Source: Candidatus Acidiferrum sp. (lineage in GTDB: Bacteria > Acidobacteriota > Terriglobia > Acidiferrales > UBA7541). Taken from it: a stretch of 64,000 nucleotides of DNA. Positions 30,885-47,708 of the stretch are shown here, in pieces. The notes beneath the pieces were generated by a model. The model was given only the letters and a program-made list of their open reading frames with translations, searched no databases and was not told the origin of the DNA. How positions within the stretch are numbered: position 1 is the first letter of the stretch; the number at the start of each line of letters is the position of its first letter. The position numbers and the translations under genes were made by a program. The DNA is taken from contig DATFZY010000035.1 in the NCBI GenBank assembly GCA_035313865.1, positions 466 to 64,465 of the forward strand, given 5' to 3'.

Positions 30885-31562
30885 ATGCCGCTTCCAAGAT
30901 GGGCTTTAGCTTTGGCTAATGATGCAGGCCTGGCAGGTGGTTCAAGCGCCTCCGTGGCCGCGGCGGACTCTTTGCCCAATGTAAATGAGCAGTCCCTGGT
31001 GGCGGAAGCTCAGGCCGGCAGCAGGGTGGCTTTCGAGGAGCTGGTGCACCGCTACGACCGGGATGTGCTGCGGCTGGCACTGAACCTGATGAAGCGCCCG
31101 GAAGACGCGCGCGATGTTTATCAGGAAGCGTTTTTGAAGGTTTTCAAGAATCTGCACCGGTTTCGGTTCGAGTGCAGCTTTTATACGTGGCTCTACCGGA
31201 TAGTGACGAACGTTTGCCTGGATCATCTGCGGCGGCGGCAGGCGCGGCCTGAGGATCAGTCGCCGGAACCCAACCCCGGGCACCATGAAGAAGGCATCAC
31301 GGACTTTTTTGAGCGGCAGCGGGAGCATCGTCCGACGCTGGATCCCGAGCGGCAACTATTTGGCAAAGAGATTCAGGCGCGCATTGCATCGGCGATGGAA
31401 CGGCTGTCGCCGCGCGAGCGCGTTGTGTTTGAGATGAAGCACTATCAAGGATTGAAGCTGCGAGCGATTGGCGACGCGCTGGGCACCACGGAAGAAACCG
31501 TGAAGAATTCGCTGTTTCGCGCGACGCGCAAACTGCGCAGCCAGCTGGGAGGCTTGCGATGA
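30885..31562 (+). CDS. ECF RNA polymerase sigma factor
   Basis: AFEELV.RY, DA.DV.QEAFLK, FYTWLYRIVTN.C.D.LRR, TVKNSLFRA. Confidence 0.95.
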   Translation: MPLPRWALALANDAGLAGGSSASVAAADSLPNVNEQSLVAEAQAGSRVAFEELVHRYDRDVLRLALNLMKRPEDARDVYQEAFLKVFKNLHRFRFECSFYTWLYRIVTNVCLDHLRRRQARPEDQSPEPNPGHHEEGITDFFERQREHRPTLDPERQLFGKEIQARIASAMERLSPRERVVFEMKHYQGLKLRAIGDALGTTEETVKNSLFRATRKLRSQLGGLR

Positions 31563-32641
31563 GCGCGCCTCAACAGACACAGTGCAAAGAAGTTGCCGCG
31601 CTTCTTGTTTTTTACGCTTGCGAAGAAACCAGCGCGCAGGAGAAAGCGCGGATCGAAAAGCATCTAGCGGGTTGCGCGGCTTGCGCCTCGCAGCTTGCTG
31701 AGGAACGCTCCCTTCACGAGTCCTTGATGGAAGCGCTGCAAGCCTCCGAACAATTTGATAGCGGAGGCATTCTTCTTTCGCGGTGCCGCAGTGAACTTGC
31801 GGAAGCGTTGGACGATTTATCGGCACCCCCTTTGAAGAAACACTGGCAGCCGCTGGGATGGCTCCGCAGTTGGATGGCCATGCGGCCGGTCTGGAGCGCG
31901 GCGGTTTTGGTTTTGATTGGATTGGGGCTGGGTACGCAAGGGTTGCCGTGGTTGTCGGCGCGGCTGGATTCCGGGTCGAACGGGCAGACTGTAAATGTTT
32001 CGCCTTCGGCACGGTTCACGGATGAACAGCTGGCGAAGATGGCTGTGGCGAGCATGAGTTTTTCTCCTACGTCTGACAGCACCTCCGGAAATGTGCAGCT
32101 GCACATAAAGACGGAACAGCCGCTGGTACTTTCCGGAAGCGTGGACGATCCCGATCTGCGCCGCGTTTTGACATACGTGGTTGAAAATGGAAATCAGACA
32201 GAAGCTGGAGTGCGGCTCGACTGCCTGGAAGCGCTGCGGGCGCGCACGGGAGATGCCGACGTGCGCCGGGCGCTGCTTTATGCGGCGCGAAATGACCAGA
32301 ATCCCGCGGTGCGGATGAAAGCGATGGAATCGTTGCGCGATGTAGTGGTGGACCAGACCGTGCGCGAGACGCTGATTGATGCGCTGGAGCACGACTCCAA
32401 TCCCGGCGTGCGCGTGGAAGCGGTGAACCTGCTGGTGCGCTCGCTGGAAGGCGGTACACCGGAAGCTGCGCAGACTCCGGAAGCGGTGCTGGCCCCGGAG
32501 CCTGTGGAACGTTTGCTGGACCCGTCGATGGAACGCGTGATTCAGACGCTACAGGATCTAGAGCGCAGCGATCCCAACCGCTACGTGCGGCTGCGCAGCG
32601 CCGCGGCTTTGCGGCAGATTGGCCCGCACGAAGTTCAGTGA
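31559..32641 (+). CDS. zf-HC2 anti-sigma factor with TM and periplasmic HEAT repeats
   Basis: HLAGCAAC (HxxxCxxC), TM segment, D.NPAVR.KA / D.NPGVR.EA / DPNRYVR repeats. Confidence 0.88.
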   Translation: MSAPQQTQCKEVAALLVFYACEETSAQEKARIEKHLAGCAACASQLAEERSLHESLMEALQASEQFDSGGILLSRCRSELAEALDDLSAPPLKKHWQPLGWLRSWMAMRPVWSAAVLVLIGLGLGTQGLPWLSARLDSGSNGQTVNVSPSARFTDEQLAKMAVASMSFSPTSDSTSGNVQLHIKTEQPLVLSGSVDDPDLRRVLTYVVENGNQTEAGVRLDCLEALRARTGDADVRRALLYAARNDQNPAVRMKAMESLRDVVVDQTVRETLIDALEHDSNPGVRVEAVNLLVRSLEGGTPEAAQTPEAVLAPEPVERLLDPSMERVIQTLQDLERSDPNRYVRLRSAAALRQIGPHEVQ

Positions 32642-32689
32642 GAAGTGCGGTGAGAAGTTCAGCCGGTTGAGAAGAGATCCAAGCAAGAA

Positions 32690-34507
32690 ATGAGCACCCT
32701 TCCCATTTTCGTGACGATTCGCGATACGCGGACGAAAGTTTCTCGCGCTGCGCTGTCAGCCATTTTCTGCTCGATACTACTTTCGGGTTTGGCTTTTTGC
32801 GCGAACTCCAATGAACCGTTTGCTGCTGGAGCTGTCGTTCCCGGCGATCCGGCGCCGCGCGTGGCCACGGATCGCTCCGGCACGCTGCAAACCAAAGACG
32901 GACTAACGCTGCACCTGACGACGGACCTTGGCTTGGTGCGAATCATCGCGTTGGAACCGGGCGCGCCGCAAGTGGTGCGTTACACGGTGCATATTGAGAC
33001 CGATGCGCGCGCGCCATGGGCGCAGAATCTTCTGGACCGCTATGCGCTGACGGCAAAAACGACGGCGTCCGGCGTGGAGATGACGGGAACCTTGCCGCCG
33101 CAGTCCGGGCACGGTGAAGCGATTGCGCAATTCTGGGTGCAATTTGAAGTTGCGGTTCCCGCGGGCTACAGCGTCGACGTGAACACGGGCGCCGGAGACA
33201 TCGAAACGAGAGACATCGGCGGATCCGCGAACCTCATCACGCAGGGCGGAAACATTCGGACTGGGCGCATCGGCTTCAGACCGGTGCTCAACGTATCGCA
33301 GAGCCACTTGCTCGCAAAGCTCTCCACGCAGGGCGGACATATCCAAGTGCAAGATGTTGCGGGCGACCTGGATGCGTTCACCGCGGGCGGGCACATTGTC
33401 GCGGGAAACATCACGGGAGATGGAACGTTGCGCAGCGGAGGCGGGCACATCCGCGCGGGACAAATTGGCGGGCGTGCGCAACTGGAAACCGATGGCGGCA
33501 ACATTACGCTGAAGCAAGCGGGGAGTTTCGTCAGCGTGCGCACCGGCGGCGGACAGATTGATTTCGGCGAAGTGCGCGGCTCGGTGCGGGCGCAAACGGG
33601 CGGCGGCGGGATTCGCATCATCACGGTTTCCGGGCCGATGGAAGTCGAATCCAACGGGGGGAGCATTTGCTTGACGCGCGTGGCAGGCGCGGTGCAGGCA
33701 GCCACCGCGGGCGGCACGATTCAGGCGTGGTTCAATCCGGATGCGGCTTCCTCCAGCGGCGTCGTGAGCCTTCCGGGCGCTTCGCAACTTTCTTCCGGAG
33801 CGGGAGACATCATCATTTTCCTGCCGCGAAATCTGGCCGTCACCATTGATGCGCTGGTCGAAAAAGGGGGCGTGAGCCGCATTGATGCCGACCCTGCGCT
33901 GCTTTTGAACATCCAGGCGCAAGGAAATCGAGACCTGGGCGCGGTGCGCGCCACGGGAATTTTGAATGGCGGCGGCGCGCTGCTGAAATTGCGCACGACG
34001 GTGGGCAAAATCCGGCTGCAATACCTGGATGAAGGCACGGGACTGCGTGATTCGCTGATTCAGCAGCAGCGCGAACGGATCGAGCGCGTGCGTGACTCGG
34101 ACTTTCCTTCCAACAAGTTTTCGGAACCGGGCCCGGGAGCCGCAGAGCAGCCTCCAGCCGATGAAAGACGTGACTGGTTGGAGAGCTGGATGGACAGTTT
34201 GGAGCGATTTCTTCTTGGCGGAATACACGAAGATTCCAGCGAGTTCTTCAAGCGGCTCATCGCGAGGCCGAACCCCGCGTATCCCGAGCTTGCCCGGAAG
34301 GCAGGTATCCACGGAGTTGTGAAGCTGCAAGTACGGGTGAAGATAGATGGAAGCGTGGAAGTGATCAAGATTCTGGAAGGCGAACCGGTTCTTGCGGATG
34401 CCGCGATAGACGCGGTCAAGAGGTGGCGCGCGAAGCCGGCATCCATCAATGGAAACCCGGTGGAGACCATTTCAACCGTGGCATTTGATTTTGAACCGTC
34501 GCACTGA
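32690..34507 (+). CDS. DUF4097-like beta-repeat protein fused to a TonB C-terminal domain
   Basis: About ten TxGGxI-type repeats, then P.YPELARKAGIHGVV.L...W...PA..NG.PV. Confidence 0.8.
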   Translation: MSTLPIFVTIRDTRTKVSRAALSAIFCSILLSGLAFCANSNEPFAAGAVVPGDPAPRVATDRSGTLQTKDGLTLHLTTDLGLVRIIALEPGAPQVVRYTVHIETDARAPWAQNLLDRYALTAKTTASGVEMTGTLPPQSGHGEAIAQFWVQFEVAVPAGYSVDVNTGAGDIETRDIGGSANLITQGGNIRTGRIGFRPVLNVSQSHLLAKLSTQGGHIQVQDVAGDLDAFTAGGHIVAGNITGDGTLRSGGGHIRAGQIGGRAQLETDGGNITLKQAGSFVSVRTGGGQIDFGEVRGSVRAQTGGGGIRIITVSGPMEVESNGGSICLTRVAGAVQAATAGGTIQAWFNPDAASSSGVVSLPGASQLSSGAGDIIIFLPRNLAVTIDALVEKGGVSRIDADPALLLNIQAQGNRDLGAVRATGILNGGGALLKLRTTVGKIRLQYLDEGTGLRDSLIQQQRERIERVRDSDFPSNKFSEPGPGAAEQPPADERRDWLESWMDSLERFLLGGIHEDSSEFFKRLIARPNPAYPELARKAGIHGVVKLQVRVKIDGSVEVIKILEGEPVLADAAIDAVKRWRAKPASINGNPVETISTVAFDFEPSH

Positions 34508-34623
34508 CGGGGAGTGATGATGGCGGCGAATCGCGCAGGCGTGTTATTGGGGTTCGAGGTTGGTTCCACTGTGAGCAGCAACGAGCAACCGCTCGTGAGA
34601 TGAACTCGAGGGGGTAGAACGAG

Positions 34624-35388
34624 ATGCTACGTCCAGGTTTGCGCTCGGCGGTGTTGTTCATCCTGATGCTTGCGGGGGTGTCCGCTGCTCCTTGCTTTGC
34701 GATCAGCAAAGACTTCAATCAATCGTATTCGCTGCAGCCGGGAGGTTCGTTTGAGCTGCAGAATGTCAACGGCCCCGTCGAGGTGGAAGGGTGGGACCGC
34801 AATGTCGTGGAAATCCACGCGGTGAAAATCGCCAAAGAAAAAGAGGCGGACCTGGAGCGCGTAACGATTGAGGTGGAAGCGCGACCTAATGCCGTGTCGG
34901 TGGTAACGCGTTATCCGCAGAATGAGGGCGTGGAAGTGGCCGTGGAATACACCATACATGTTCCGCATGGAGCGCGCGTGGAACACATTGGGACGGTCAA
35001 CGGGACGCTGAAGATTGCGGGCGTCGAATCCGTGGAGGATTTGCGCACCGTGAACGGAAATATTGAAGTGTACGAGGGCGGCGGAAGCGTGCACGCGCGG
35101 ACGACGAACGGGAATCTGCATCTAGAACTTTCGCGTGCGATGGATGACAAGGGCATGACGGCGGAGACGACGAACGGGTCGCTGCTGCTGGCTGTGCCGC
35201 AGGATACGCAGGCGAATCTCGAAGCGCGCTCGTTAAATGGCAATTTTTATTCGGAGTTGCCGCTGTCGCTCGAGAGTTCCTTGAAACCGCGGGAGATGCG
35301 CGGCAAGTATGGCAAAGGCGGCGCGCCCATCAAACTGAATACCATCAACGGCGGAATTCGCGTGGTGATTTTGCGGTCAACGGTTTAG
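34624..35388 (+). CDS. Secreted DUF4097 (putative adhesin) beta-repeat protein
   Basis: Signal peptide; NVNG/TVNG/TTNG/TING repeats. Confidence 0.85.
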   Translation: MLRPGLRSAVLFILMLAGVSAAPCFAISKDFNQSYSLQPGGSFELQNVNGPVEVEGWDRNVVEIHAVKIAKEKEADLERVTIEVEARPNAVSVVTRYPQNEGVEVAVEYTIHVPHGARVEHIGTVNGTLKIAGVESVEDLRTVNGNIEVYEGGGSVHARTTNGNLHLELSRAMDDKGMTAETTNGSLLLAVPQDTQANLEARSLNGNFYSELPLSLESSLKPREMRGKYGKGGAPIKLNTINGGIRVVILRSTV

Positions 35389-35427
35389 CCCGGGCCGCGT
35401 CTAAGCAAAGCAGGAGGCAGAAAAATC

Positions 35428-36435
35428 ATGCTGAAACGTAATTTGATTATGTGCGGCGGAGCGGCGGTGCTGGGTGTTGCGCTGATTGCGTTGCCCAGCC
35501 CTTCCGCGGTGGCACAAGATTCTGCGGCCGCAAAGGTGGCGCAAGTGGAAGCGAGCCGTGCGCAAGTGGCTGCCGCGCAGGCCGCATTTCAAGAGGCGCA
35601 ACAGGACCAGCGAAACCGCGTGTTGATTACGCCTGGGGCGGAGGTGGACTCTGACGGCCCGGTGGTGCTGTTTGGCGACGATGGCGCGAGCTGGCTGGGC
35701 GTGGAATCGCAGGAAGTTAACTCGGAGAAGGCCAAGGAACTGAAGCTGCCCGCGGAGCGCGGCGCCCTGCTGCAGCGAATCGTGCCGGACAGCCCGGCGG
35801 CAAAAGCCGGTTTGAAAGAAAATGATGTCATTACCGAAATAAACGGACAGCGAGTGGAAGGCGCTGCGCAATTTCGCCGCATGATTCACGAGATTCCCGC
35901 CGGACGGACGGTGCAATTCACGGTATGGCGGGACGGCCGCGCGCAAACGATTGCCGCGACGCTCGGCAAATCGGAAGATCGCGCGAGTGTCTGGTCCAAA
36001 ACTGCCCCGCGCGCATTTTCCTTCCAGCTTCCGAAGGTGGAAATGCCGGAAATGCCTGATGGACCTGGGATGGATTGGAATTTAGAGATGCTGCCTGGCG
36101 GGCGGCCGCGTCTGGGCATTGACGCCGAAGACCTGAGCGGACAATTCGGAGCCTATTTTGGCGCGCCGGACGGCGAAGGCGTGCTGGTCCGCGAAGTGAA
36201 TGCCGGATCCGCGGCGGACAAGGCCGGAGTGAAGAGCGGCGACGTCATTGTTTCGCTGAATGGCGATCGCATTCGTTCGCTCGGCGATCTGCGGGAGAAA
36301 CTTGCCGGAAAGCGGGAAGAAAAGACTGTGAAACTCGGTGTCTTGCGCAACAAGAGCGAGCAGTCGATTACCGTGGAATTGCCGCCGCTGCCTTCGAAAA
36401 CTCCGCGAGTTATATCGCGACGCACCAATATTTAA
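35428..36435 (+). CDS. Periplasmic tandem-PDZ protein without a protease domain
   Basis: Signal peptide; WLGV...SPAAKAGLK.NDVI and RLGI...SAADKAGVK.GDVI; no GNSGG trypsin motif. Confidence 0.85.
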   Translation: MLKRNLIMCGGAAVLGVALIALPSPSAVAQDSAAAKVAQVEASRAQVAAAQAAFQEAQQDQRNRVLITPGAEVDSDGPVVLFGDDGASWLGVESQEVNSEKAKELKLPAERGALLQRIVPDSPAAKAGLKENDVITEINGQRVEGAAQFRRMIHEIPAGRTVQFTVWRDGRAQTIAATLGKSEDRASVWSKTAPRAFSFQLPKVEMPEMPDGPGMDWNLEMLPGGRPRLGIDAEDLSGQFGAYFGAPDGEGVLVREVNAGSAADKAGVKSGDVIVSLNGDRIRSLGDLREKLAGKREEKTVKLGVLRNKSEQSITVELPPLPSKTPRVISRRTNI

Positions 36436-36449
36436 GAAAGCTTTGCGCA

Positions 36450-36487
36450 AGAAAGCCCGGACAAATTGTCCGGGCTTTCTCGTTTTT
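36450..36487. terminator. Intrinsic, likely bidirectional terminator
   Basis: AGAAAGCCCGGACA-AAT-TGTCCGGGCTTTCT followed by a T-run, between convergent operons. Confidence 0.8.
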
Positions 36488-36534: not shown

Positions 36535-37719
36535 TCAGGGCTTGCCGTCGCGGCCATATTTTCGCGCGAGACGAAATGGACGTCCGAGGGCATCGAGAAA
36601 CCAGTGGCGCTTGTTTTCTTCGCCTTCGACCCAGTCTTCCTCGGTGGGCGAAAAAGATAGCCGAAAAAGATAGCCGAGCCCGGAAAAACCGCCGCCGTAC
36701 ATGCCGATGCGAAACTTAGCGCGTTCAACAATTCCCGTCGGCGCCGTACCGGCTGCTGGAAGCCACCGAATAATCTGAGAAGACAGGCGGCCGACGGCGC
36801 GGTCCGATCGCACAGCCGCTGCGATTGCATCAGGTAGCGGAGCACCGAGCATATCGGCGGCCAATCGCAGGCCGACTTGTAACATGCGTTCCGCCCCAAC
36901 CTCTTCGGCGGCTGACTTCACGAGCGCCCAATCGAGTTGCTGCCGGGAGACGAAGGCGGCCACGTCGGCGATATAAACAAGGCGCTCCCAAAAATGCTTC
37001 GCTCCGTGAATACAAATCAGGATCAGTTCGTCTTCCGGCGAAAGCGCGGGAACCTCGTGCGCATCGAACTTTTCGCGCACTTGCCGGCGAAAGAGCGCTT
37101 CCAACGGAAGGGGTTTCGGATGATAACGGAAGGTAAGCTCGGTGTGGAATTCGATCAGGAGCTTCGTGGTGGGCTGCCGAAAATTGTATTCGCCGGGAAT
37201 TTTTTTAGCATGAATGGCGGTCAACGGGACGCTGGGGGCGTATCCGAGGCCAAGCATGAGTTCCGTGGAGCGCAGAATATCGTTGTCGCGCACGATCAAA
37301 TCCAGATCGCCGTATTGGCGCAAGCCTGGATCGCCGTAACTACGCACGGAAAGCACCGGCCCTTTAATCACCAGCGCCTCGATGCCGGAGGCGGCAAAGC
37401 GATCGAAGAGCCGGAACATCTCCGCGCTCAAATTCAGGGTGAAAAGGGTGTGATTGCGGCGCCAGACGCGCAGAGCATCGCGATTTTCCGGCGGAATGAC
37501 CGCTTCGTTGAAGTCAAACAGGCGGGCGACGGTTAACCCGAGGACACCGTGGTCTTCCGCGAATGCAATCAGTGATGGCCAGTCGAGACGAGCGCGGAGT
37601 TTTTCGGCAAGGCGCTGGCGGTCCGGTTGCGGCCTGGCGCACTCGAGCAGCAGCGTCCACTCCGCTTCAAGAACTTCCGCATCCTGTGGCAGTGTTTCCG
37701 TCAGAAAATCCCCCAGCAA
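36535..37719 (-). CDS. Nucleotidyltransferase (NTP_transf_5-like), lasso-cluster tailoring enzyme
   Basis: IKGP.L....Y.DPGLR..GDLDLIV, IEFH, CIHGAKH.W.RL...D motifs; last gene of the lasso operon. Confidence 0.85.
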   Translation of the reverse strand: MLGDFLTETLPQDAEVLEAEWTLLLECARPQPDRQRLAEKLRARLDWPSLIAFAEDHGVLGLTVARLFDFNEAVIPPENRDALRVWRRNHTLFTLNLSAEMFRLFDRFAASGIEALVIKGPVLSVRSYGDPGLRQYGDLDLIVRDNDILRSTELMLGLGYAPSVPLTAIHAKKIPGEYNFRQPTTKLLIEFHTELTFRYHPKPLPLEALFRRQVREKFDAHEVPALSPEDELILICIHGAKHFWERLVYIADVAAFVSRQQLDWALVKSAAEEVGAERMLQVGLRLAADMLGAPLPDAIAAAVRSDRAVGRLSSQIIRWLPAAGTAPTGIVERAKFRIGMYGGGFSGLGYLFRLSFSPTEEDWVEGEENKRHWFLDALGRPFRLARKYGRDGKP

Positions 37720-37756
37720 TTTTCATGGAGATCGGCGGAATTCGCAATCGCTTCCG

Positions 37757-38899
37757 CTAGCGGGAAAATCTTTCGGCCAAAGCAGAAACGCGCCGGAAGG
37801 CATCTTCCGGGCGGCGAAAAACCTTTGGGAATTGTTCCGCGGCGGCTTGCGCGATTTCCTGCAAAGGCGCGATGCCGTCCATGGCCTGAAGGAGCCAGCG
37901 TTCCGCCAGACCCGCCTCCGTGAGGAGAGGAACGTAATCCGCCGCGCGGCGACGAAGAGTCTCGGACATGAATTGCGCGCCTTCAAAAGTGGACTGGCGA
38001 AAAACTCGTTCGCGTTGACCGTTATGAGCGGCGATCCTGGTATCCCAGCGCCAGATGTAGTCGCCGCCGACGGGATCGGCGTGCAAATCAACTTCAATCT
38101 CCTGCCCGGCCTCCAGAGCTACGGGTTCAAGCCAAGGAAGAAAACCCTGACCGTAGACGGTCCCCGCGGGTCCCGGTCCGGTCGAGAATCCGATGTTTTC
38201 AAAGAGCTTCGTTTCAAACCAGGCGCTCACTCCATGCCCAATCCCGCTGCGCGTTGCGCGGAATCGCATCTTTGCGGAAGCGCGGGTATTCAGGTGCGCC
38301 GTGTAATCCAGCGTGCACCAGTTTTGCGGATCCGTCAGGAGCTGCTCCTTTTTCGAGCGCAGTTTGTAAACACCATTCAGAAGGAGCGGAAGCGGAGCGG
38401 AAAGATCGATCTCGCTCCCCGGCTCCTTCCATGGCGAGGTGATGCGCTCGTAATAGTCAGGAGCTTCGACGATGGCAGCGTAGAGGGTGTCGCGCTCGGG
38501 AATCTGCGTTCCGCCCTCCTTCAAAAAGCGCACCCTGGCGTCCTCAATCGACGGCAGCGCGTCATCAAAGAGCGGCAAGGCTCCACGCACATCGGAAACA
38601 ACGACGTTCGCGCGTTCGGGCAGCTGGACTTGCCTGGAATCCTCGTGGATAAATTGGATGCGATCCGCAAAGCCATTGCTGGCGGCCAACTGCCGCGCGA
38701 GGTGAACGATGTCCCCGCCTTCGATCGCATAAACGCGCTTCGCACCGGCGCGGCAAGCCAGCAGCGCAAAGATTCCGGGACCGCAGCCGAGGTCGACGAC
38801 GACATCGCCGGGACGCACGGCGCGGCTGATGGCATCGGCGTACGCTCCAAAGCGCGCCTTGTCGGCGATCATGTCGCCAAATTCATTGAGAAGGTACAT
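37757..38899 (-). CDS. PRMT-fold class I SAM-dependent methyltransferase, lasso-cluster tailoring enzyme
   Basis: M..D..R..AY, VVDLGCGPGI, AGAKRVYAIE, LPE.A.VVVSD, RFLK.GG..IP, HG..AWF, STGP; collinear with eukaryotic PRMT cores. Confidence 0.8.
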   Translation of the reverse strand: MYLLNEFGDMIADKARFGAYADAISRAVRPGDVVVDLGCGPGIFALLACRAGAKRVYAIEGGDIVHLARQLAASNGFADRIQFIHEDSRQVQLPERANVVVSDVRGALPLFDDALPSIEDARVRFLKEGGTQIPERDTLYAAIVEAPDYYERITSPWKEPGSEIDLSAPLPLLLNGVYKLRSKKEQLLTDPQNWCTLDYTAHLNTRASAKMRFRATRSGIGHGVSAWFETKLFENIGFSTGPGPAGTVYGQGFLPWLEPVALEAGQEIEVDLHADPVGGDYIWRWDTRIAAHNGQRERVFRQSTFEGAQFMSETLRRRAADYVPLLTEAGLAERWLLQAMDGIAPLQEIAQAAAEQFPKVFRRPEDAFRRVSALAERFSR

Positions 38900-38900
38900 T

Positions 38901-39914
38901 TCAGCGGCCGGCCGCGGCGCCCAGGCTCACCTGGCTGGCCAGCAAACGGGTGGCATCGGCAAGAATCAGCTCGGAGAGAGCGCCGATCCGCGATGGATCG
39001 CTGTGAGGAACAATTCGCCGAACCGGAATCTGTGAAACCAGGCGAGAGAGCAGTTCGAATTCCGCCGCACGTTGCGCGCGGTCCAGAAGCCAATTCATAT
39101 ACGTATTCTGGACTAGTTCCAGAAGCACATCGCGACTGCTCACCTCTTCAATCCGCGGAGCATTCTCCATTTCTCGCGGACCAAGAATATAAACGGCTCC
39201 AAGAGGTTGCTTGCGGGATTCCAGGCTGGCTTTCACGCCATCCAACTGCAAATAACATTTGTCCCAGTTTGGCGCAATCCGCGGCAGTGCGTCCCGGTGT
39301 CCCATCAGCATCTCGACGGATTCGGGCCACAAACAAACGCGTGGATATCCCGCCTCGACGGCGAAACCTCCACCGGTTTCCTCGACCGCAGCAATATCCT
39401 CGCAAAGAACCGGCAATCCAAGCAGTCCCAACGCCGCCGCAGTCGTGGACTTTCCAGCTCCAGCCTCACCGGTCAGCAGAATAGCCTTGCCGTCCACGCA
39501 TAGCGCGCTGGCATGCAGCGCCGTGATTCCTCGCCGGCGCAAAATGAATCCCATGACAGGTCCGAGCAAATAGGTGGAAAGGTCCTGGATTGTTTGGCCG
39601 TCGCCAGGGATGCCCCAAATGGAGGTTGCCTCGCCGTTCACTACAAAGCGAGTCCCATCAGAATAGGCCAGTTGAAAAAATTTCCCAACTCCCAGAGAAG
39701 TAAGTACGAAGGCAGGGTCCTGCGTTTCCGGAGAGGCTGCAATACTTTGAAGAACCGCGCGTGGCAGCTCGAGCGCTTCTCGCACCCATAAAGGTTCGCG
39801 GCACAACTCCAGGCGAACGCCCGCGCGACACGAGCCGTCAATTTCCTCGTTCAATCCGGGAATTGGAGAATCGGAAGAGAGGTCCAGGCCGTAAGTACGA
39901 TAGCGGTAAGTCAC
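38901..39914 (-). CDS. HPr kinase-like (PadeK/ThcoK-type) peptide kinase
   Basis: YLLGPVMG..L..RG...LHAS, GEAGAGKST Walker A, L.EDI, P...LWP; immediately downstream of the precursor. Confidence 0.85.
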   Translation of the reverse strand: MTYRYRTYGLDLSSDSPIPGLNEEIDGSCRAGVRLELCREPLWVREALELPRAVLQSIAASPETQDPAFVLTSLGVGKFFQLAYSDGTRFVVNGEATSIWGIPGDGQTIQDLSTYLLGPVMGFILRRRGITALHASALCVDGKAILLTGEAGAGKSTTAAALGLLGLPVLCEDIAAVEETGGGFAVEAGYPRVCLWPESVEMLMGHRDALPRIAPNWDKCYLQLDGVKASLESRKQPLGAVYILGPREMENAPRIEEVSSRDVLLELVQNTYMNWLLDRAQRAAEFELLSRLVSQIPVRRIVPHSDPSRIGALSELILADATRLLASQVSLGAAAGR

Positions 39915-39957
39915 GAAAGGCCAGCACAGAGATAGCTACGTATCAGGGAGAGCACCC

Positions 39958-40110
39958 TTAGCCGGTCTTGCGCATGTTAATAGGCGTCTTCGCCCCGTCC
40001 AAAGTCCCCTTATTCGTCTTGGCCCGGGTCATCTCCGTTAAATTTCCATAGACAAGAAGTTTGGGTGCTCGGTAGGGCTTTTTCGCAGATGCCTCAGACT
40101 GCGGCCTCAT
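39958..40110 (-). CDS. Lasso peptide precursor (50 aa; not in the ORF track)
   Basis: MRPQSEASAKKPYRAPKLLVYGNLTEMTR-AKTNKGTLDGAKTPINMRKTG*: YxxPxL motif, conserved G, Thr at -2, core Asp9; ATG abuts the cyclase TGA, with GGGGGA upstream. Confidence 0.9.
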   Translation of the reverse strand: MRPQSEASAKKPYRAPKLLVYGNLTEMTRAKTNKGTLDGAKTPINMRKTG

Positions 40111-41982
40111 TCAGTTTCCCCCGATTCGACTGTACTGAATACTTTGTTCGTTTTCAACGCTTTTCAGCCAATAATCAAGAGCAATGGGCCGCAGGTCGGC
40201 CCACAATGCCAAACCTAAACCCCGGGCGGGGTGAGAAGTTGCGCTGAGCATTCTGCAGTTTACAAACATCCGCAGTCTCTCGCAAGCCCCGTCTTGCAGG
40301 GCCGGCTTCCAACTATTTTTTTCGGAATGGAGAAGGAGCGGGTCGCCTTGCAAAGGCGTCTTGCGGCGGGTGCGTATTTCCTCGGGCAATAGACCTTGCA
40401 TCGAGTCGCGAAGAAGTTCTTTATTCATACACCAGGGCACCGGGGGTACGCGTAGGAGGAAACGGATCAAACGTTGATCGTGCAAAGGAGCGCGCGTTTC
40501 CACCGGCACACCTGTCCAGCCCGAATCTTCGGGCTCATAGATGCTGGGCCAGTACGCGGTGGTCAACGAGGCATGCCCGGCGGGATGAAGCGGATGTTGC
40601 TCTTTGGCGGGCTGCTGCAACTCTCGCCAACGATCGCGCAGATGCCACTCCTGCTCAAAGGTCGGTTCCAGCCACGGAGGATAATCCACCGTTTCCTGCG
40701 CGCGGCCCATCCAGCGCCGCAAACGCGTTCGAAGCCCTGCGCGCAATGGTGGAAATCTGCCGTGACGGAGCATGTACCCACCGAACGACCGCGCCATTGT
40801 GCCCAGGTGGCCTCCCTGCAACAGCTGGACGAGATACGGCCAGGCGCGCCCGGTCAGAATGTCGTCGCCGCCGTCGCCAGTGAGCATCACGCGCCACTGC
40901 ATGGCTACCTGGCGGTAATGCTCGACGTGCAGTGCAAAAAACGGTTCAACACAAGGCTCCGGAGTGCTCAGCCCCAGCTCGTCCCATCCACCAAATGGCG
41001 GGCACGAAGCTCCCGAGAGGATCTCGATGGGAATGCCGAGGTGCTTCGCGGCCCGCGACGCGAGTGTGCCCTCCTCGTCCTCAAAAAGCGGAGTGTAATC
41101 CACGGTGTACGCACGCAGCGAATCCCGGACGCCTCGCGCGACCTGCACCTTGCCGGCGATCGCCGCGACGCTCGTGGAGTCCAGTCCTCCACTCATGAAA
41201 ATTCCCGCCGCGCCCTGCGGCAAGCGGTCCCGCACAGCTTCTTCCAGGTGTCCGCGAAAGGCCTCGATGTACTCTTCGCGCCGCCTCAATAAGAGCGGCT
41301 CTTCGATAGGCAGGCTCGTGTAACGGCGCACCTGCACTTCTCCATTCGAAAAGTGCAGAGCGTGGCCCGCCGTCAACCGGCGCACATCGCGATACGCAGT
41401 GCGTTCGGGATCAGAGCACCAGGATTGCAGCAGAAAGTCGCCGATAAAATATGGGTCGAGCTTCGCGGATACTTCTGGCGCAAGCCGCACGGTGTTGAGT
41501 GTGTTGCTGAAAATAAGCTGGCCGCCAACGTGTGCGTAAAAGAAGGGTCTGGCGCCCAGCAGACTGCGCGCGCACCACAACTCTTTCGCTTCCGAATCCC
41601 AAAGCGCAAACGAAAAATCTCCGATCAAAGTCTCAAAACTTTTTTCGGCCCACAGTCGCCACGCCCGCAGAATCAACTCTTCATCGGTGGTGTCCGCGGG
41701 AGCCTTTTCTCCATGCTGCTCGAGCCTTCGGCGCATCTCCTCGCGCCCGTCCAGCCGCACATCGCCCAGCAGCCAGACTCGGCCATCCAGGGAACACGGC
41801 TGTGCGGCGGCTTGCGGAGACGGACCGGTTCGCAGCAGAGTGAAACAGAATCCCGCCCCGGGGCGCATCCAGACCTGCGTCGCATCCGGCCCGCGAAATG
41901 CCAGGCTCTCTGCCATTCGCTCAATGATGCGGACATCGGGCGTTCCGCCGTCCGGGCGCACAATCCCCGCAAACCCGCTCAT
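40111..41982 (-). CDS. Lasso cyclase (asparagine synthetase-like isopeptide-bond-forming enzyme, C protein)
   Basis: N-terminal MSG instead of the catalytic MCG, SGGLDST PP-loop, LTGDGGD, R.P..D.R, K.LLR..M.GLLP..I..R.K. Confidence 0.92.
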   Translation of the reverse strand: MSGFAGIVRPDGGTPDVRIIERMAESLAFRGPDATQVWMRPGAGFCFTLLRTGPSPQAAAQPCSLDGRVWLLGDVRLDGREEMRRRLEQHGEKAPADTTDEELILRAWRLWAEKSFETLIGDFSFALWDSEAKELWCARSLLGARPFFYAHVGGQLIFSNTLNTVRLAPEVSAKLDPYFIGDFLLQSWCSDPERTAYRDVRRLTAGHALHFSNGEVQVRRYTSLPIEEPLLLRRREEYIEAFRGHLEEAVRDRLPQGAAGIFMSGGLDSTSVAAIAGKVQVARGVRDSLRAYTVDYTPLFEDEEGTLASRAAKHLGIPIEILSGASCPPFGGWDELGLSTPEPCVEPFFALHVEHYRQVAMQWRVMLTGDGGDDILTGRAWPYLVQLLQGGHLGTMARSFGGYMLRHGRFPPLRAGLRTRLRRWMGRAQETVDYPPWLEPTFEQEWHLRDRWRELQQPAKEQHPLHPAGHASLTTAYWPSIYEPEDSGWTGVPVETRAPLHDQRLIRFLLRVPPVPWCMNKELLRDSMQGLLPEEIRTRRKTPLQGDPLLLHSEKNSWKPALQDGACERLRMFVNCRMLSATSHPARGLGLALWADLRPIALDYWLKSVENEQSIQYSRIGGN

Positions 41983-42443
41983 CGCGGCCCCGGCGGCAGA
42001 GAGGACAGCGCCGCGTCAAACGCAGCATAATGCTCGTGGAGCGCTTCCGGCTCATTCAACGCAGTCCCCGCGCGCTCCACCCAGGCATGCGCCTCGAATT
42101 TTTCGGCCTCTTTGCGAACGCCAATGCGCAGTTCGCAAGCAATCCCCTGGCGCCCCAGCAGCCACCACAATGCAAGCGATTCTTCCAGGCAGGTGGGATG
42201 ACCACCACTGTGACGCACCGCGGCGCGCACCATGCGCGCCGTGCTTTCCGCAGCTGCGGCGGGCACTGAACTATCGGGCCGCTCCTTGGGCGGGGAAAGA
42301 AACCTTTGCAGGAAGGCCTGAGTCTTACGAAATCCGCGCAGGCGCAAACTCATGGAAATCAGGGGCAACAATGCCGCCGCACGCAGGAAAAGCCCGCGCG
42401 CCGGGCGCTCCAGCGCGCTAAACCGTCGAAGCCGTTCCCACAT
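41979..42443 (-). CDS. Lasso leader peptidase (B2, transglutaminase-like)
   Basis: TCL..SL...W.L...G...LRIGV...F.AHAWVE; real ATG at 42443 within ORF 41979..42614. Confidence 0.92.
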   Translation of the reverse strand: MWERLRRFSALERPARGLFLRAAALLPLISMSLRLRGFRKTQAFLQRFLSPPKERPDSSVPAAAAESTARMVRAAVRHSGGHPTCLEESLALWWLLGRQGIACELRIGVRKEAEKFEAHAWVERAGTALNEPEALHEHYAAFDAALSSLPPGPR

Positions 42444-42723
42444 CGGCAGGCTGAATCTGTAGCAATCCGTTTTCGACGAGCCGCCCCAGGAGTTCCGTGA
42501 GGTGCAACCGCAGCAGTTCGGACTCGACGTCGAACTCGTTCTGGAGCTCCTGATAGGCAGCGTCAATGCTCGGCGCAGCAGTGACCACCTGCCACATGCG
42601 CGTCCCGGTTTCATCCAGGCCGAAGTAACGCTCCGTCTCCAAATTCAAAAGCACGGATTCCCTATCGAGAAAACGCACCAGCACATGCGGCACCGTTCCA
42701 GCGCGATCTGCGAATGACACCAT
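42418..42723 (-). CDS. RiPP recognition element (PqqD-family, B1)
   Basis: ESVLLNL....YFGLDETG..MW...L..EFDV...L..L...GLL. Confidence 0.92.
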   Translation of the reverse strand: MVSFADRAGTVPHVLVRFLDRESVLLNLETERYFGLDETGTRMWQVVTAAPSIDAAYQELQNEFDVESELLRLHLTELLGRLVENGLLQIQPADVGTASTV

Positions 42724-43040
42724 CAGCCCCGCTCCTCAGCTCCTCGTCCAAACACGCAGGTCAGGCCATTGCGTGCGTCTTGCGTCACAAATTCTAGTGC
42801 TCATATTCTACCGGGGATTCGAGCGGTTCGCCATGCGGAGTAACAGTTGAGATGGAATCAAATTTCGACATGCAGGCGAATCACGATCGCTGCATTACCT
42901 TGCCTCACGGAGTTTCATCCTCTGTGAGGATAAATTCTGCCGTCACACTTTTTCGTGCGCCCTCTTCCATTTCCACCTTTTCGCCCTTCCCTGCATAGAA
43001 TCCTGCGAACCACCCCAACCTGGCCATTTCGTGCAACCGA

Positions 43041-43895
43041 TTGTCTTCGCGCCACAGACACGCTATAAGTTTTGTCGTGCCGGAAGCCGCGATTGCTGTT
43101 GCATCCCTCGAAAAATTGTTTCCGCCCGCGCGCAGCGGCTGGCGCGCTTTCTTGCAGCCATTTGAAAAACCGTCCGTGGTCGCGCTCGCCGGAATTTCCT
43201 TCGAGGTTCGCCCCGGCGAAGCGTTGGCGCTCTTGGGTGCAAACGGCGCGGGAAAATCGACCCTCCTCAAAATTCTCGCCACGCTGCTTCTTCCCACGCA
43301 TGGCCATGCGCAAATCGCCGGACACGATGCCGTTCTCGACCCGCGCGCCGTCCGCCGCCAGATCGGCTATCATGCCGGCAGTGACCTCGGCTTTTACGCG
43401 CGACTCACCGGCCGCCAAAATCTGCGCTTCTTCGGGCGCCTCAATCATCTTTCGGACGCCGCCTCTGCGCAGCGTATCGCGCTGCTCTCGGAACAGTTCC
43501 ATCTCGGAGAAGCACTCGACCGCCAGCTCCGCACGCTCTCCTCGGGAACGGTCCAGCGTCTGAGTCTCGCTCGCGCCCTGCTCCACCAACCGCACGTACT
43601 TCTGCTCGACGAACCCACTCGCAGCCTGGACGCCATCGCTGCCTCTGAATTTCGCCGCTTCCTCAAATCCGAAGTCCTCAGCCGCGGCGACACTTCCCTG
43701 CTCTTCGCTTCGCATACTCTGCCCGAAGTCGAGATGCTCGCCGACCGCGTCGCCGTGATTGATGCGGGACGTCTCGTCACCTGCGACACTCCCGCTGCCT
43801 TGAAGCGCACCACGAACGCTGCATCGCTAGAAGACGCCTTCATGCGCCTGACGGGTCGCTCCCCACATCTCACCGGAGAGGGAACCCCGGAATGA
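43041..43895 (+). CDS. ABC transporter ATP-binding protein (exporter type)
   Basis: GANGAGKST, LSSG..QR, LLLDEPT, ASH; start may be GTG 43077. Confidence 0.92.
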   Translation: MSSRHRHAISFVVPEAAIAVASLEKLFPPARSGWRAFLQPFEKPSVVALAGISFEVRPGEALALLGANGAGKSTLLKILATLLLPTHGHAQIAGHDAVLDPRAVRRQIGYHAGSDLGFYARLTGRQNLRFFGRLNHLSDAASAQRIALLSEQFHLGEALDRQLRTLSSGTVQRLSLARALLHQPHVLLLDEPTRSLDAIAASEFRRFLKSEVLSRGDTSLLFASHTLPEVEMLADRVAVIDAGRLVTCDTPAALKRTTNAASLEDAFMRLTGRSPHLTGEGTPE

Positions 43896-44707
43896 CGCGC
43901 AGCCTGCGCGAGTTGTGGGCTTTCTTCTGGCGCGACCTCTCCATCGCGCGCACCTACCGCACCGTCTTCGTGCTCGAAGCCCTCGAAGCGCTGTTCGGAG
44001 TGGCCATGTTTTTTTATGTCGCGCGCTTCGTGGACAGCCCGCAGCTCCGGAACGCGCTCCCGCAGGGCGGAGGCTACTTCGCTTTTTCCCTAATCGGCTT
44101 CGTCTTCCTCGATTATCTCAACGCCGCGATGGACACCTTCGACCGAAGCCTCGAAGAAGCCCGCGACTCCGGCACGCTCGAACATCTGCTGGTCACGCAG
44201 ACTTCTCTCCCCGTCATTCTGGCCGGCTCAGCAATCTATCCTTTCGCAGTGACAACGCTGCGCATAGCCGTCTACGTCGCCTGGGGCGCACTGTTCTTCG
44301 GGTTTCCGCTGCGCGGTGCAAACTGGCTCGCCGTAGCCGCGGTGCTCCTCGCCACTCTGCTCGCTTTTTCCGGACTGGGAATTCTCTCCGCAAGCTATCT
44401 CCTGCTCTTCAAGCGCGGCAATCCCGCGAAGTGGTTCCTCCTCGGCGTTTCCAGCGTTGCCGGCGGCATGCTGTTTCCCATCAGCGTGCTTCCCGATTGG
44501 CTTCAGATAGTGGCCCGGTTGAATCCTGTCACTTACGCGCTAGACGCTATGCGCGCCGCTCTTCTCGGCGGCGCGGATGTGCAAGCCGTCTGGCGCCCGC
44601 TGATCGTCCTTCTCATTTTCAGCGCAGTCCTTCTGCCCCTTTCCATGGCGGTATTCTCCTGGGCGCTTCGCCGCACCAAAACCACGGGAACTCTAATGCA
44701 CCGCTAG
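43892..44707 (+). CDS. ABC-2 type permease
   Basis: GTLE.LL, FPISVLP.WLQ..A..NP.TY..D..R; about 6 TM helices; ATGA overlap. Confidence 0.9.
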   Translation: MTRSLRELWAFFWRDLSIARTYRTVFVLEALEALFGVAMFFYVARFVDSPQLRNALPQGGGYFAFSLIGFVFLDYLNAAMDTFDRSLEEARDSGTLEHLLVTQTSLPVILAGSAIYPFAVTTLRIAVYVAWGALFFGFPLRGANWLAVAAVLLATLLAFSGLGILSASYLLLFKRGNPAKWFLLGVSSVAGGMLFPISVLPDWLQIVARLNPVTYALDAMRAALLGGADVQAVWRPLIVLLIFSAVLLPLSMAVFSWALRRTKTTGTLMHR

Positions 44708-44785: not shown

Positions 44786-44820
44786 AAAAAAAGGCCGGCC
44801 CCGCAAACCGGAACCGGCCC
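44786..44820 (-). terminator. Intrinsic terminator for the que/TPR transcript
   Basis: Minus strand GGGCCGGTTCCG...CGGGGCCGGCC followed by T7. Confidence 0.65.
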
Positions 44821-44844: not shown

Positions 44845-46008
44845 TCAGGACTTCTTTTTCGCGTTCACCTTGATATCAATGCCCGGAGCCATCTGCTGCA
44901 ATTGTTCCAGCCCCTCTTTAGCCTGCTTGCCAAAAGGTCCGTTGGGGTCGAGTTCAATCGCCTTCTGGTATGCCTCAATGGTTCCCGGCGCGAACTCGGG
45001 CACATCTTTGTTCCCGACTTTCTTTACCGTCATTTTATAGATTAGGCAGGCACCCAGCAGATACCAGGTCTGCGCGCTCTTCGGGTCCAGTTCTGCGGAT
45101 TTCTGTAGAGGTTCGATGGCGTCGGCTCCGCGGTTCGCGTTATACAAGCTGATACCAAAGTTGCGCCAGGCCGTCGCGGCTTTCGCCGGATCCAGTTCCG
45201 CGCTCTTCGTGTAAGCGGCCCGCGCTTCGTCGATCTTCCCCGCTCGCGCCAGCACGTTTCCCAGATTGTTGTAGTAGCCGGGGTCATCCGGCTTCGCGTT
45301 GATGGCCTGCTGGTAAGCTTGCGCTGCTTCGTCATTGCGCCCCGCCAGGTCATACGCTTCGCCCAGACGCGCCCAAAGCAGGTGCTGGTTGGGGTCTTTT
45401 TCCGACGCCGCCTTCTGTGCCGCCTCAAATTCTGTAGCGGCTTTGTCGGATAGATCCTTCAGGTTTTGCTTCAGCGCATCTTTCTGATCCGCAGGCGCCT
45501 TGGACAAGTCGTCTTTCGCCTTGCGCTCCTGGTCCAGGAATCCAGTCCCGGCAGTGTAGTGCGCTTTCATGCCCTCGAACTTTTGCTTTTCCTCGGCGTC
45601 CGCCTTGGTTTTTTGCGCCGCAGCCGCGCCCTCTTTCGCCATCTCTGTCTTGAAGTTCATGTCCAGTTTCGCTTCATCGTTGCTGGTCACCCGGATTTGC
45701 CCCATCTTGACAGGAATTTGCTTTTCATTCGGCGGCGGGAAAGTGATAATCGTCACGTCGTAGACGCCCGGGCGGAGATTGCGAAAACCGTACCTTCCTT
45801 CCGCATCGGTCTTTGCTTCCAGCTTCGCGCCCTGGTCGCTTATCGCCTCGACTCCCAACCCAAACCACGGCTTTCCGTTGATATCCATAATTATGCCGCT
45901 GAGTGTTCCAGTCACTTGCGCCTTCGTGCCCGGCGCAAGCACGCAAACCAGCGCGGCCACGAGCACCGCAGCCATCGCGCAATACTTCCTAAATCTTTTC
46001 ATACCCAT
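44845..46008 (-). CDS. Secreted TPR protein with N-terminal carboxypeptidase-regulatory-like domain
   Basis: Signal peptide, G.I.D..GKP...TD..G.Y....L.PG.Y, several TPRs (YYNNLGNVLA..G..DEA..AY). Confidence 0.85.
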   Translation of the reverse strand: MGMKRFRKYCAMAAVLVAALVCVLAPGTKAQVTGTLSGIIMDINGKPWFGLGVEAISDQGAKLEAKTDAEGRYGFRNLRPGVYDVTIITFPPPNEKQIPVKMGQIRVTSNDEAKLDMNFKTEMAKEGAAAAQKTKADAEEKQKFEGMKAHYTAGTGFLDQERKAKDDLSKAPADQKDALKQNLKDLSDKAATEFEAAQKAASEKDPNQHLLWARLGEAYDLAGRNDEAAQAYQQAINAKPDDPGYYNNLGNVLARAGKIDEARAAYTKSAELDPAKAATAWRNFGISLYNANRGADAIEPLQKSAELDPKSAQTWYLLGACLIYKMTVKKVGNKDVPEFAPGTIEAYQKAIELDPNGPFGKQAKEGLEQLQQMAPGIDIKVNAKKKS

Positions 46009-46092
46009 TTCTCCTTTTGCCGAGGCATACCCTGCCCGGCCTGGCTGGCGGGATGTGCCCTATTATGCCTAATCTTAGCTCTTTTCCAAGTG

Positions 46093-46818
46093 TCAGGAGT
46101 GCGCCGAGACCGCCTGCCGGTAAGGGATGGGATCCGCCACGCCAGCCTCCGCAAACGCCTTCAATCGCAGCAGGCAGCTGTCGCACGCTCCGCAAGCTTT
46201 TTCTTCGCCCTGATAACACGACCACGTCAGATGCAACGGCGCACCAAGCGTGATTCCGCGTCGAATAATTTCATTTTTCTTCAGCGTAATCACTGGAGTC
46301 GCAATCTCGATCTGCGTCTCTGGCCGCGTTCCCACGCGCACCAACTCCTGAAATACCTGGTAATACTCCGCGCGGCAATCGGGATAGCCGGAGCTATCCT
46401 CCGCCACGGCTCCGATGCAAACGGCTCCCGCCCCAATCGCTTCCGCCCAGCTCACTGCTACGGAAAGAAAATGAGCGTTGCGAAACGGCACATACGTCAC
46501 GGGAATCGAGCTCCCATGCGGCCCCGGCGCGCCAAGCTCATTCTCCGGCACCGCGATTTTCTTGTCCGTAAGCGCCGATCCGCCTATCGCTCGAAAGTGG
46601 TCGAGCTGCACCACAAGCCGCTGGCTCACGCCGTAAAAATCCGCAATCGCCTCAAACGCTCGCCGCTCGCGTTCCTGTGTCCGCTGCCCGTAACCTGCAT
46701 GCAGCAGCGCAATGTTCCCGGCCCCATGCCGCTCGCGCGCAATCGCGGTGCAAACACAAGAGTCCATCCCTCCGCTCAGGAGCACCACTGCCTTCGAGAT
46801 TTGCGACCCAACTGTCAT
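46093..46818 (-). CDS. queC: 7-cyano-7-deazaguanine synthase
   Basis: AVVLLSGGMDS, YGQR, TYVPFRN, GYPDCR, TWSCY, CG.CDSC.LR. Confidence 0.97.
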   Translation of the reverse strand: MTVGSQISKAVVLLSGGMDSCVCTAIARERHGAGNIALLHAGYGQRTQERERRAFEAIADFYGVSQRLVVQLDHFRAIGGSALTDKKIAVPENELGAPGPHGSSIPVTYVPFRNAHFLSVAVSWAEAIGAGAVCIGAVAEDSSGYPDCRAEYYQVFQELVRVGTRPETQIEIATPVITLKKNEIIRRGITLGAPLHLTWSCYQGEEKACGACDSCLLRLKAFAEAGVADPIPYRQAVSAHS

Positions 46819-47012
46819 ACATCCCCATTATAACTCGCGCCGTCCCAACAACTCGCCGCGCGAGTAAGTTCAGGGGGGCAGCACGCTGCGCCCCTGGTCT
46901 GCAAAGCTCTAAACTGGCCCCTTCCAATGTGGGACAGACTATGTGTGAGCTAAGCGCCAGTTTGGAGGAGGGGAGCGAAAAATTCGAATCTTCTGAGTGA
47001 CCCCGGTAACTC

Positions 47013-47708
47013 CTAAACTCCCTTTGTCGCCGGGTCCCACACAAACTTATGCAGCTGAAGCCCAAGCCGCACCGGCAACCCATCCGCAAGTATCCACTCC
47101 ACCACCTTGCGCGCCTCCAACCCCTGCCATTTCCCCGCCGGATCGTCAAACACCGGCGAAAACAAAACCTGCTTCACGCGCTCCGCCAGCCGATGCTCCG
47201 CCGTAAAATCTCTCGCAAACTCATAATCCCGCCGCGTCATGAGCACAAACTTCACTTCATCTTTCGCATCCAGCTCCGCAAGATTCCGCATCTCAAACGT
47301 ATCCGCTTCGCCCGAGTCCGGGCATTTCACATCCACAATCTTGATCACCTCGCGCGGCAGCCGCCCGGTAAACCGCTCGCCGCTGGTCTCGATCATCACC
47401 GTGTATCCAGCCGTAACCAATTTCTCCGCCAGCGGATAAACCTCTTCCTGCAAAAGCGGCTCCCCGCCAGTCAATTCAACAAGCGGCACGCGAGCCTGCG
47501 CGCCAGATGCCGCCGCCTCGCGCCCAGCAAGTTCATCCACTCGAGCCAGCACATCCTCAACACTCATTTTCTTCCCGCCATGAAACGCATAAGCCGTATC
47601 GCACCACGTGCACCGCAAATTGCAGCCAGTCAGCCGCACAAAAACACACGGCAACCCCGCCCGTGTCCCTTCGCCCTGAATCGATTTGAAAATTTCGGTT
47701 ATGAACAT
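47013..47708 (-). CDS. queE: 7-carboxy-7-deazaguanine synthase (radical SAM)
   Basis: EIF.SIQGEG, GCNLRCTWCDT, TGGEPL, ETSG, QLHK. Confidence 0.95.
   Translation of the reverse strand: MFITEIFKSIQGEGTRAGLPCVFVRLTGCNLRCTWCDTAYAFHGGKKMSVEDVLARVDELAGREAAASGAQARVPLVELTGGEPLLQEEVYPLAEKLVTAGYTVMIETSGERFTGRLPREVIKIVDVKCPDSGEADTFEMRNLAELDAKDEVKFVLMTRRDYEFARDFTAEHRLAERVKQVLFSPVFDDPAGKWQGLEARKVVEWILADGLPVRLGLQLHKFVWDPATKGV

Follow-up and report, generated by a model that had tools for sequence, protein, structure and literature searches.

An acidobacterial lasso-peptide gene cluster encodes a kinase, a PRMT-fold methyltransferase and a nucleotidyltransferase

Lasso peptides are compact, protease-resistant scaffolds. 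In their biosynthesis, kinases are known to phosphorylate paeninodin-type precursors (PMC9266682). In the Bsf system of Bradymonas sediminis FA350 (bsfA, B1, B2, C, D, K, N), the kinase BsfK phosphorylates the linear precursor with the help of B1, its target being core Ser3 (PMC10368454), and in the pseudomycoidin system PsmK and PsmN act on the C-terminal Ser (PMC6993621). The lasso methyltransferases treated in two reviews comprise only the carboxyl O-methyltransferases StspM/LasF and enzymes of the PIMT type (PMC9266682, PMC8498205); where studied, StspM/LasF and the PIMT-type TceM/LihM act before the ring is closed (PMC9266682). Here we describe a locus at positions 36535-44707 of a 64,000-nucleotide stretch of DNA from Candidatus Acidiferrum sp. 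of the phylum Acidobacteriota (contig DATFZY010000035.1; hereafter the window), in which a kinase and a nucleotidyltransferase of these kinds are encoded together with an S-adenosylmethionine (SAM)-dependent methyltransferase built like the protein arginine methyltransferases (PRMTs) of eukaryotes. A preliminary description of this DNA had drawn on the paeninodin-type kinases and on the PsmN-dependent hexosylation of phosphorylated pseudomycoidin, and both precedents check out (PMC9266682, PMC6993621). We consider it very probable that the locus is an intact kinase/nucleotidyltransferase-type lasso operon of the paeninodin, pseudomycoidin and Bsf lineage combined with a dedicated peptide methyltransferase. 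What appears to be new, judging by the genes, is the coupling of a PRMT-fold methyltransferase to the kinase within a lasso cluster, the kinase and nucleotidyltransferase being of kinds already studied. Full-text literature searches, of partial coverage so that absence is not proof, found no PRMT-type enzyme described in a lasso cluster; the preliminary description likewise knew of no characterised example of the combination.

The window holds a real, intact lasso-peptide cluster. All seven minus-strand genes and a divergent two-gene ABC-2 exporter are intact according to the open reading frame (ORF) listing and to Pfam and NCBIfam scans, which also bear out the gene identities first proposed. 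In order of transcription, the minus-strand genes encode B1, B2, C, the precursor A, the kinase, the methyltransferase and the nucleotidyltransferase. They are as tightly coupled as the preliminary description had stated (overlaps, or gaps of at most 43 nt): B1 and B2 overlap by 26 nt and B2 and C by 4 nt, the gap between C and A is 0, and the gaps that follow are 43 nt (A/kinase), 1 nt (kinase/methyltransferase) and 37 nt (methyltransferase/nucleotidyltransferase). B1 (42418-42723, 101 aa) is a recognition element of the PqqD type found in pathways for peptides that are made by the ribosome and modified after translation (RiPPs), and matches PqqD (PF05402) with E 9e-14. B2 (41979-42443, 154 aa) is a transglutaminase-like leader peptidase (PF13471 Transglut_core3, E 8e-22; lasso_biosyn_B2, E 2e-24) that scores 86 bits against NF033537, whose cut-off is 33, and its catalytic Cys (in PTCLEES) and His (in AHAWVE) are both legible in the sequence. 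The longest B2 ORF overlaps B1 heavily, and ATG 42443 is taken as the likely start because the resulting 154 aa agree with the gene calls of relatives. The cyclase C (40111-41982, 623 aa) is Asn-synthetase-like, with matches to Asn_synthase (PF00733, E 9e-30), GATase_7 and NF033535 (E 7e-80); its score falls below the cut-off of the last model, a cut-off that is cyanobacterial. The precursor gene (39958-40110, 50 aa), recognised as an ORF with the leader motif YxxPxLx3Gx5T-x, has a strong ribosome site, GGGGGA, inside the end of C. On the plus strand, divergent from B1 and as originally proposed, lie a DrrA-like ABC transporter ATPase (43041-43895, start uncertain) and, overlapping it by 4 nt, a DrrB-like ABC-2 permease (43892-44707), the ATPase being assigned by Pfam and NCBIfam. 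The host assembly is a 4.4-Mb metagenome-assembled genome (MAG), 83% complete, in which the B2 of the window is the sole B2 match.

The kinase (38901-39914, 337 aa) is HprK-like by its catalytic motifs: it carries H134, the P-loop GEAGAGKS (149-156) and E172-D173, spaced as in BsfK, and the equivalent BsfK residues, with the motif H...GxxGxGKS...(D/E)D, have been shown to be important by mutagenesis (PMC10368454). Its scores against family models are weak (PF07475, E 0.006; TIGR04352, 39 bits). The nucleotidyltransferase (36535-37719, 394 aa) is a PF14907 (NTP_transf_5) protein of the PsmN/BsfN type (E 2.6e-49), with an uncertain start, the TTG used here being that of the longest ORF. We liken it to PsmN, a DxD-motif NTP-transferase that is itself uncharacterised and adds hexose to the phosphate, and its DLD motif at residues 138-140, a DxD metal site, is comparable to the D134/D136 pair that PsmN requires for hexosylation of phosphorylated pseudomycoidin (PMC6993621). 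Thus equipped, the window resembles the Bsf system in its Gram-negative host, split B1/B2, cyclase, ABC exporter, HprK-like kinase with catalytic motif and PF14907-type nucleotidyltransferase (PMC10368454). With the pseudomycoidin and paeninodin systems (psm and pade; PMC6993621, PMC9266682) it shares kinase phosphorylation of a C-terminal hydroxyl and an Ala1-Asp ring, both of which are predicted for the window, but those systems belong to another phylum, the Bacillota, and have a different type of exporter from the two-gene ABC-2 pair seen here. Unlike the window, neither the bsf nor the psm and pade clusters have a methyltransferase.

The association of the methyltransferase with lasso genes extends well beyond the window. 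Related loci from other genomes and metagenomes, denoted by L-numbers below, were searched by tblastn with the window proteins. Relatives of the methyltransferase that are 59-98% identical fall into more than 120 protein clusters at 90% identity, mostly from soil metagenomes; the relatives of the host assembly are Acidobacteriota MAGs, some of them named Candidatus Acidoferrum or Acidiferrum, and near-identical DNA is present in soil metagenomes of several studies. Three long contigs, L002, L004 and L005 (methyltransferases 79%, 69% and 59% identical), have the window's nine genes in unchanged order. Such gene-for-gene recurrence in many genomes argues that the arrangement is not due to chance. 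L002 and L004 share both flanks of the window, and L005 only the queC/TPR side; since both flanks recur in the relatives with methyltransferases 69-79% identical, the cluster seems to have passed down vertically within that sublineage, staying at a single place in the chromosome. A sample of 401 species genomes of the phylum contained a methyltransferase homologue (E <= 1e-20) in 41. Lasso C was found at 15 of the 20 phylum loci with flanking sequence; three of the others are cut by contig ends and two are unrelated short paralogues. At the 15 cyclase-bearing loci B1 and B2 are usually present and the kinase always, most often as the immediate neighbour of the methyltransferase, and at the metagenome loci most methyltransferases likewise lie alongside lasso genes and a kinase. 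This linkage spans phyla and a range of identity from 98% to about 28%, and places the methyltransferase, on genomic context, in the lasso pathway.

The cluster is therefore one member of a widespread subfamily and not unique. Its conserved unit is the kinase with the methyltransferase; the nucleotidyltransferase is optional, being absent from several methyltransferase clusters (e.g. L051, L052, L054, L057 and L058). The co-occurrence of tailoring and lasso genes elsewhere, on which the preliminary description had staked its reading, was thus found, and the triple combination of kinase, methyltransferase and nucleotidyltransferase does recur, but it is neither rare nor obligatory. The methyltransferase is itself an accessory, patchily distributed module, occurring in three of 19 genomes of the window's own family and in 16 of 151 of its class, whereas lasso B2, found over its cut-off in 113 of the 401 phylum genomes, is much commoner. 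A Chloroflexia MAG (L012:3903-9138) encodes B1, B2, C and a kinase together with a methyltransferase that shares 39% identity with that of the window; hence the module crosses phylum boundaries, possibly having spread by horizontal transfer. In another Acidobacteriota MAG (L011:6809-8543) the cyclase match runs directly into methyltransferase residues 200-380, with no precursor or kinase match at the locus, and this apparently degraded cluster looks like the result of an internal deletion.

Sequence searches with the methyltransferase (37757-38899, 380 aa), which has Pfam matches to PrmA and PRMT_C, recover PRMT6, PRMT1/HMT1, PRMT2, PRMT3 and CARM1 among PDB sequences (phmmer, E 2e-23 to 1e-19, residues 9-271). 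An AlphaFold model built with 48 homologues has a mean predicted local distance difference test score (pLDDT) of 93, and Foldseek aligns it to PRMT6, PRMT2, PRMT1 and HMT1 with E of about 1e-28 and template-modelling (TM) scores, by target, of 0.79-0.86. We are therefore confident, from the model, in the assignment of a PRMT fold. The enzyme consists of a Rossmann and β-barrel region (about residues 1-303) followed by an additional domain of three helices at the C-terminus (about 305-380), and the SAM-binding residues D13, R16 and the GxGxG motif (G38/G40/G42) are conserved. Eukaryotic type I PRMTs (PRMT1, PRMT6, HMT1) share the two-domain fold, the SAM motifs and an acid at the first position of the double-E loop, in which two conserved Glu hold the guanidinium. 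At this first position the methyltransferase has D103, which is D or E across the family and invariant in the close family, and the adjacent R105 is likewise invariant in the close family and lost in distant members. Unlike it, however, type I PRMTs act on Arg substrates, lack an extra C-terminal domain and keep both the second Glu and the THW loop; here the second position, D112, is occupied by A, H, R or S in relatives, and the residues aligned with THW are T-V-Y. StspM/LasF, which O-methylate the C-terminal carboxyl, and TceM/LihM, which act in aspartimide formation (PMC9266682), resemble this enzyme in being SAM-dependent and in tailoring the precursor, but their folds and families are unrelated to its kinase-coupled PRMT fold with a C-terminal helical domain.

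Examination of the C-terminal domain shows near-invariant residues across the whole family (P324, L326, G330, F361 and A367). Modelled alone, it forms three long helices (pLDDT 89), and comparison of this model with 48,161 representative chains gave as the top match the PqqD protein of Xanthomonas (3g2b; Z 6.6, root-mean-square deviation 2.4 Å over 49 residues, 22% identity). Leader-bound lasso B1 proteins were also among the matches (6jx3, Z 4.9; 5v1u, Z 4.5), and Pfam PqqD gives a weak hit to the domain (E 0.11); such values fall short of demonstrating homology. From these model-based similarities, it is a reasonable hypothesis that the domain serves as an RRE-like docking domain for the precursor, RRE standing for RiPP recognition element, a leader-binding winged-helix fold with a three-stranded sheet and three helices. 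Several results tell against this proposal: the PqqD match lies below Z 8, a level common for helical bundles; hhalign of the domain against a B1 alignment pairs the expected helices at E 0.017 but with a probability of 2.7%; Foldseek of the domain model against the PDB returned nothing at E <= 0.001, the lasso B1 6jx3 ranking 40; and the domain has no separate three-stranded sheet. A shape search with the domain gave matches confined to the methyltransferase's own family, and a language-model search with residues 305-380 had as its best named lead WHD_PKMT (0.80), below the trust mark. Prediction of a complex of the full methyltransferase with the precursor scored 0.00, which is not evidence either way. 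The Acidobacteriota PRMT-like paralogues L056 and L059 (G083:C30, G070:C31) match residues 8-290 only and lack the C-terminal domain; they sit outside lasso clusters, which supports a pathway-specific role of the domain.

The precursor comprises a 29-aa leader and a 21-aa core, AKTNKGTLDGAKTPINMRKTG, with cleavage predicted after Thr(-2)-Arg(-1); the Thr(-2) is canonical, whereas the Bsf leader has Ile(-2). As Asp is at core position 9, a nine-residue Ala1-Asp9 macrolactam is predicted. When 23 precursors from clusters with the methyltransferase are aligned, leader residues K10, Y13, P16, Y21, G22 and T28 are invariant, and at least 90% conservation in the core is limited to the ring Asp and a near-C-terminal Thr, here Asp9 and Thr20. 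The conserved Thr lies 1-3 residues from the C-terminus and is usually preceded by Lys or Arg. This conservation points to Thr20 as the most likely phosphorylation site, with Thr3 second; Thr3 corresponds to the Ser3 site of BsfK but ranks lower because position 3, Thr in the window, is variable among relatives. Against Thr20 stand its penultimate position, the acceptor in psm and pade being the very last residue, a Ser, and the presence in the same core of the BsfK-type site. Among 33 related precursors, 12 have as their sole acidic residue reachable from the N-terminus that at core position 10, counting from the canonical Thr(-2) cut (e.g. L004:6779-6931, L005:6754-6933, L010:4931-5068, L063:3958-4098 and L064:4799-4936), so that their ring would have to span ten residues unless the cleavage site is shifted. 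To our knowledge, a ten-residue ring would exceed that of any characterised lasso peptide. Some related clusters encode two different precursors (L048, 3984-4151 and 6072-6215; L051, near 5872 and 6551). A distant kinase-methyltransferase branch, with precursor motifs at L055:4398, L076:5878, L079:4614 and L081:489, has Gly/Ala-rich cores with Glu/Asp8 and a conserved terminal Cys-Leu, which suggests different or additional C-terminal chemistry; the methyltransferases of three of these loci are 32-35% identical to that of the window, and that of L081 is 46% identical over a partial match.

What the methyltransferase acts on was considered in the light of 33 cognate core peptides. The window's closest relatives keep the tail motif M-R-K-T-G/A, and on sequence Arg18 or Lys19 remain candidate acceptors. 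A true arginine methyltransferase acting on Arg18, the sole core Arg, would yield the first methyl-arginine lasso peptide; in its favour, type I PRMTs are the nearest matches of the enzyme in both fold and sequence, members of the close family all have D103 as the first acid of the double-E loop, and relatives with methyltransferases at least 69% identical retain an [MF]-R-K-T tail. We nevertheless think this unlikely. Arg is absent from 17 of the 33 cores, including those of L010, L067 and L068, whose methyltransferases are still 55-61% identical, and this, with the non-conserved second Glu and THW, makes a strict arginine activity doubtful. The enzyme is thus unlikely to be an arginine methyltransferase proper; the PRMT-like character noted in the preliminary description holds for the fold and does not imply arginine methylation. 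A side-chain N-methyltransferase for Lys, or for Lys and Arg alike, acting on tail or ring with loose position specificity, would fit more of the cores and is a possibility that we hold tentatively. Lys occurs in 29 of the 33, often directly before the conserved Thr (K-T), and the Pfam matches include PrmA, a Lys and N-terminal methyltransferase. There are also leads to bacterial protein-lysine methyltransferases (the WHD_PKMT lead mentioned above and Rv2067c, Z 4.6), but these lie below the trust marks of the respective tools. Against this reading, four cores (L045, L046, L079 and L081) have no Lys, basic residues are missing altogether from two of these, L045 (whose methyltransferase is 44% identical) and L081, and no Arg or Lys position is conserved across the cores.

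Only three groups occur in all 33 cores, namely a residue bearing a hydroxyl, the acid of the ring and the C-terminus; given these and the obligate linkage to the kinase, the phosphorylated product or the C-terminus may be the acceptor. A leader-guided enzyme would then methylate the phospho or phosphoglycosyl group installed by the kinase and nucleotidyltransferase, giving for instance a phospho-Thr methyl ester or a methylated appended group, or else the C-terminal carboxylate. Action on the kinase product would account for the strict linkage: every complete methyltransferase locus holds a kinase, usually adjacent, although kinases occur without a methyltransferase in bsf, psm and pade (PMC10368454, PMC6993621). 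The invariant R105 beside D103 in the close family would also be in keeping with it, but R105 is not retained in distant members, PRMT-fold enzymes are known as N-methyltransferases, and the proposal derives from gene linkage; we regard it as more doubtful still than methylation of Arg18. We know of no RiPP precedent for methylation of a phospho group or C-terminus by a PRMT-fold enzyme, and if true this would be chemistry so far unseen in ribosomal peptides and a new activity of the fold. An acceptor other than all of these takes up the remaining probability. The chance that the methyltransferase is a mere neighbour with a housekeeping role, such as ribosomal protein methylation, is by comparison minute: some source annotations name homologues '50S ribosomal protein L11 methyltransferase', but the NCBIfam PrmA score of the window protein is 31.5 bits against a cut-off of 183, and the lasso linkage at all levels of identity together with the patchy distribution effectively refutes such a role.

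Returning to a dedicated peptide methyltransferase within the lasso pathway, we propose the following scheme. B1 would bind the YxxPxL leader of the 50-aa precursor, and the HprK-like kinase would phosphorylate a hydroxyl residue of the still-linear peptide, most likely Thr20 near the C-terminus, following the pattern of the B1-aided Bsf kinase. The PF14907 enzyme could then, in the manner of PsmN, attach a hexose or a group derived from a nucleotide to the phosphate, while the PRMT-fold enzyme, docked on the precursor through its C-terminal helical domain, would move one or more methyl groups from SAM onto the core. B2 would cut off the leader after Thr(-2)-Arg(-1), C would close the Ala1-Asp9 isopeptide ring around the tail, and the divergent ABC-2 pair would export the 21-residue product, for which triple tailoring is a prediction. 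Monoisotopic masses calculated for the core are 2201.195 Da when linear and 2183.184 Da as a lasso; the lasso form would reach 2263.151 Da with phosphate, 2197.200 Da with methyl, 2277.166 Da with both, 2425.204 Da with phosphate and hexose, and 2439.219 Da with phosphate, hexose and methyl. We infer every chemical step, the order of the steps and the methyl acceptor; it counts against the scheme that the cluster is known from genes alone, in an incomplete MAG. A weak hint of expression comes from one soil metatranscriptome library, in which four short contigs are 100% identical to parts of the kinase, C, B1/B2 and permease genes, but these could stem from carry-over of contaminating DNA.

The region between B1 and the ABC genes (42724-43040) presumably holds the divergent promoters, and no strong match to a sigma-70 promoter was found within it. 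A GC-rich 14-bp hairpin (36450-36480) lies between the nucleotidyltransferase gene and a convergent PDZ gene. The terminator that the preliminary description placed at the end of the operon thus exists as a hairpin, but as its clean T-run is on the plus strand we regard it as a plausible terminator for both directions and not as a classical operon terminator. On the minus strand at 44792-44820, after the TPR gene and just past the end of the ABC permease, is a strong intrinsic-terminator-like hairpin of 12 pairs followed by seven T. Beyond it, one flank (44845-47708) contains queC/queE-like genes and a TPR/CarboxypepD_reg gene (44845-46008); these were considered as cluster members and rejected, their synteny being limited to the closest lineage and their families being of a housekeeping type. 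The other flank (30885-36435) encodes the PDZ protein, DUF4097 and TonB-C proteins, an anti-sigma-like protein and an extracytoplasmic function (ECF) sigma factor.

New tailoring enzymes widen the range of products built on the lasso scaffold, and we found no characterised counterpart in RiPP biosynthesis of a PRMT-fold methyltransferase tied to a kinase. Roughly one in ten of the phylum's sampled genomes has a homologue of it, against some quarter to a third with lasso B2. As the methyltransferase is this common in the lasso clusters of soil Acidobacteriota, a single biochemical study would annotate hundreds of clusters, and the window supplies a complete and intact case, possibly an expressed one, whose 21-residue core is simple. 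Such a study would also reveal the function of a PRMT-like fold in bacteria where the residues that bind arginine have not been retained.

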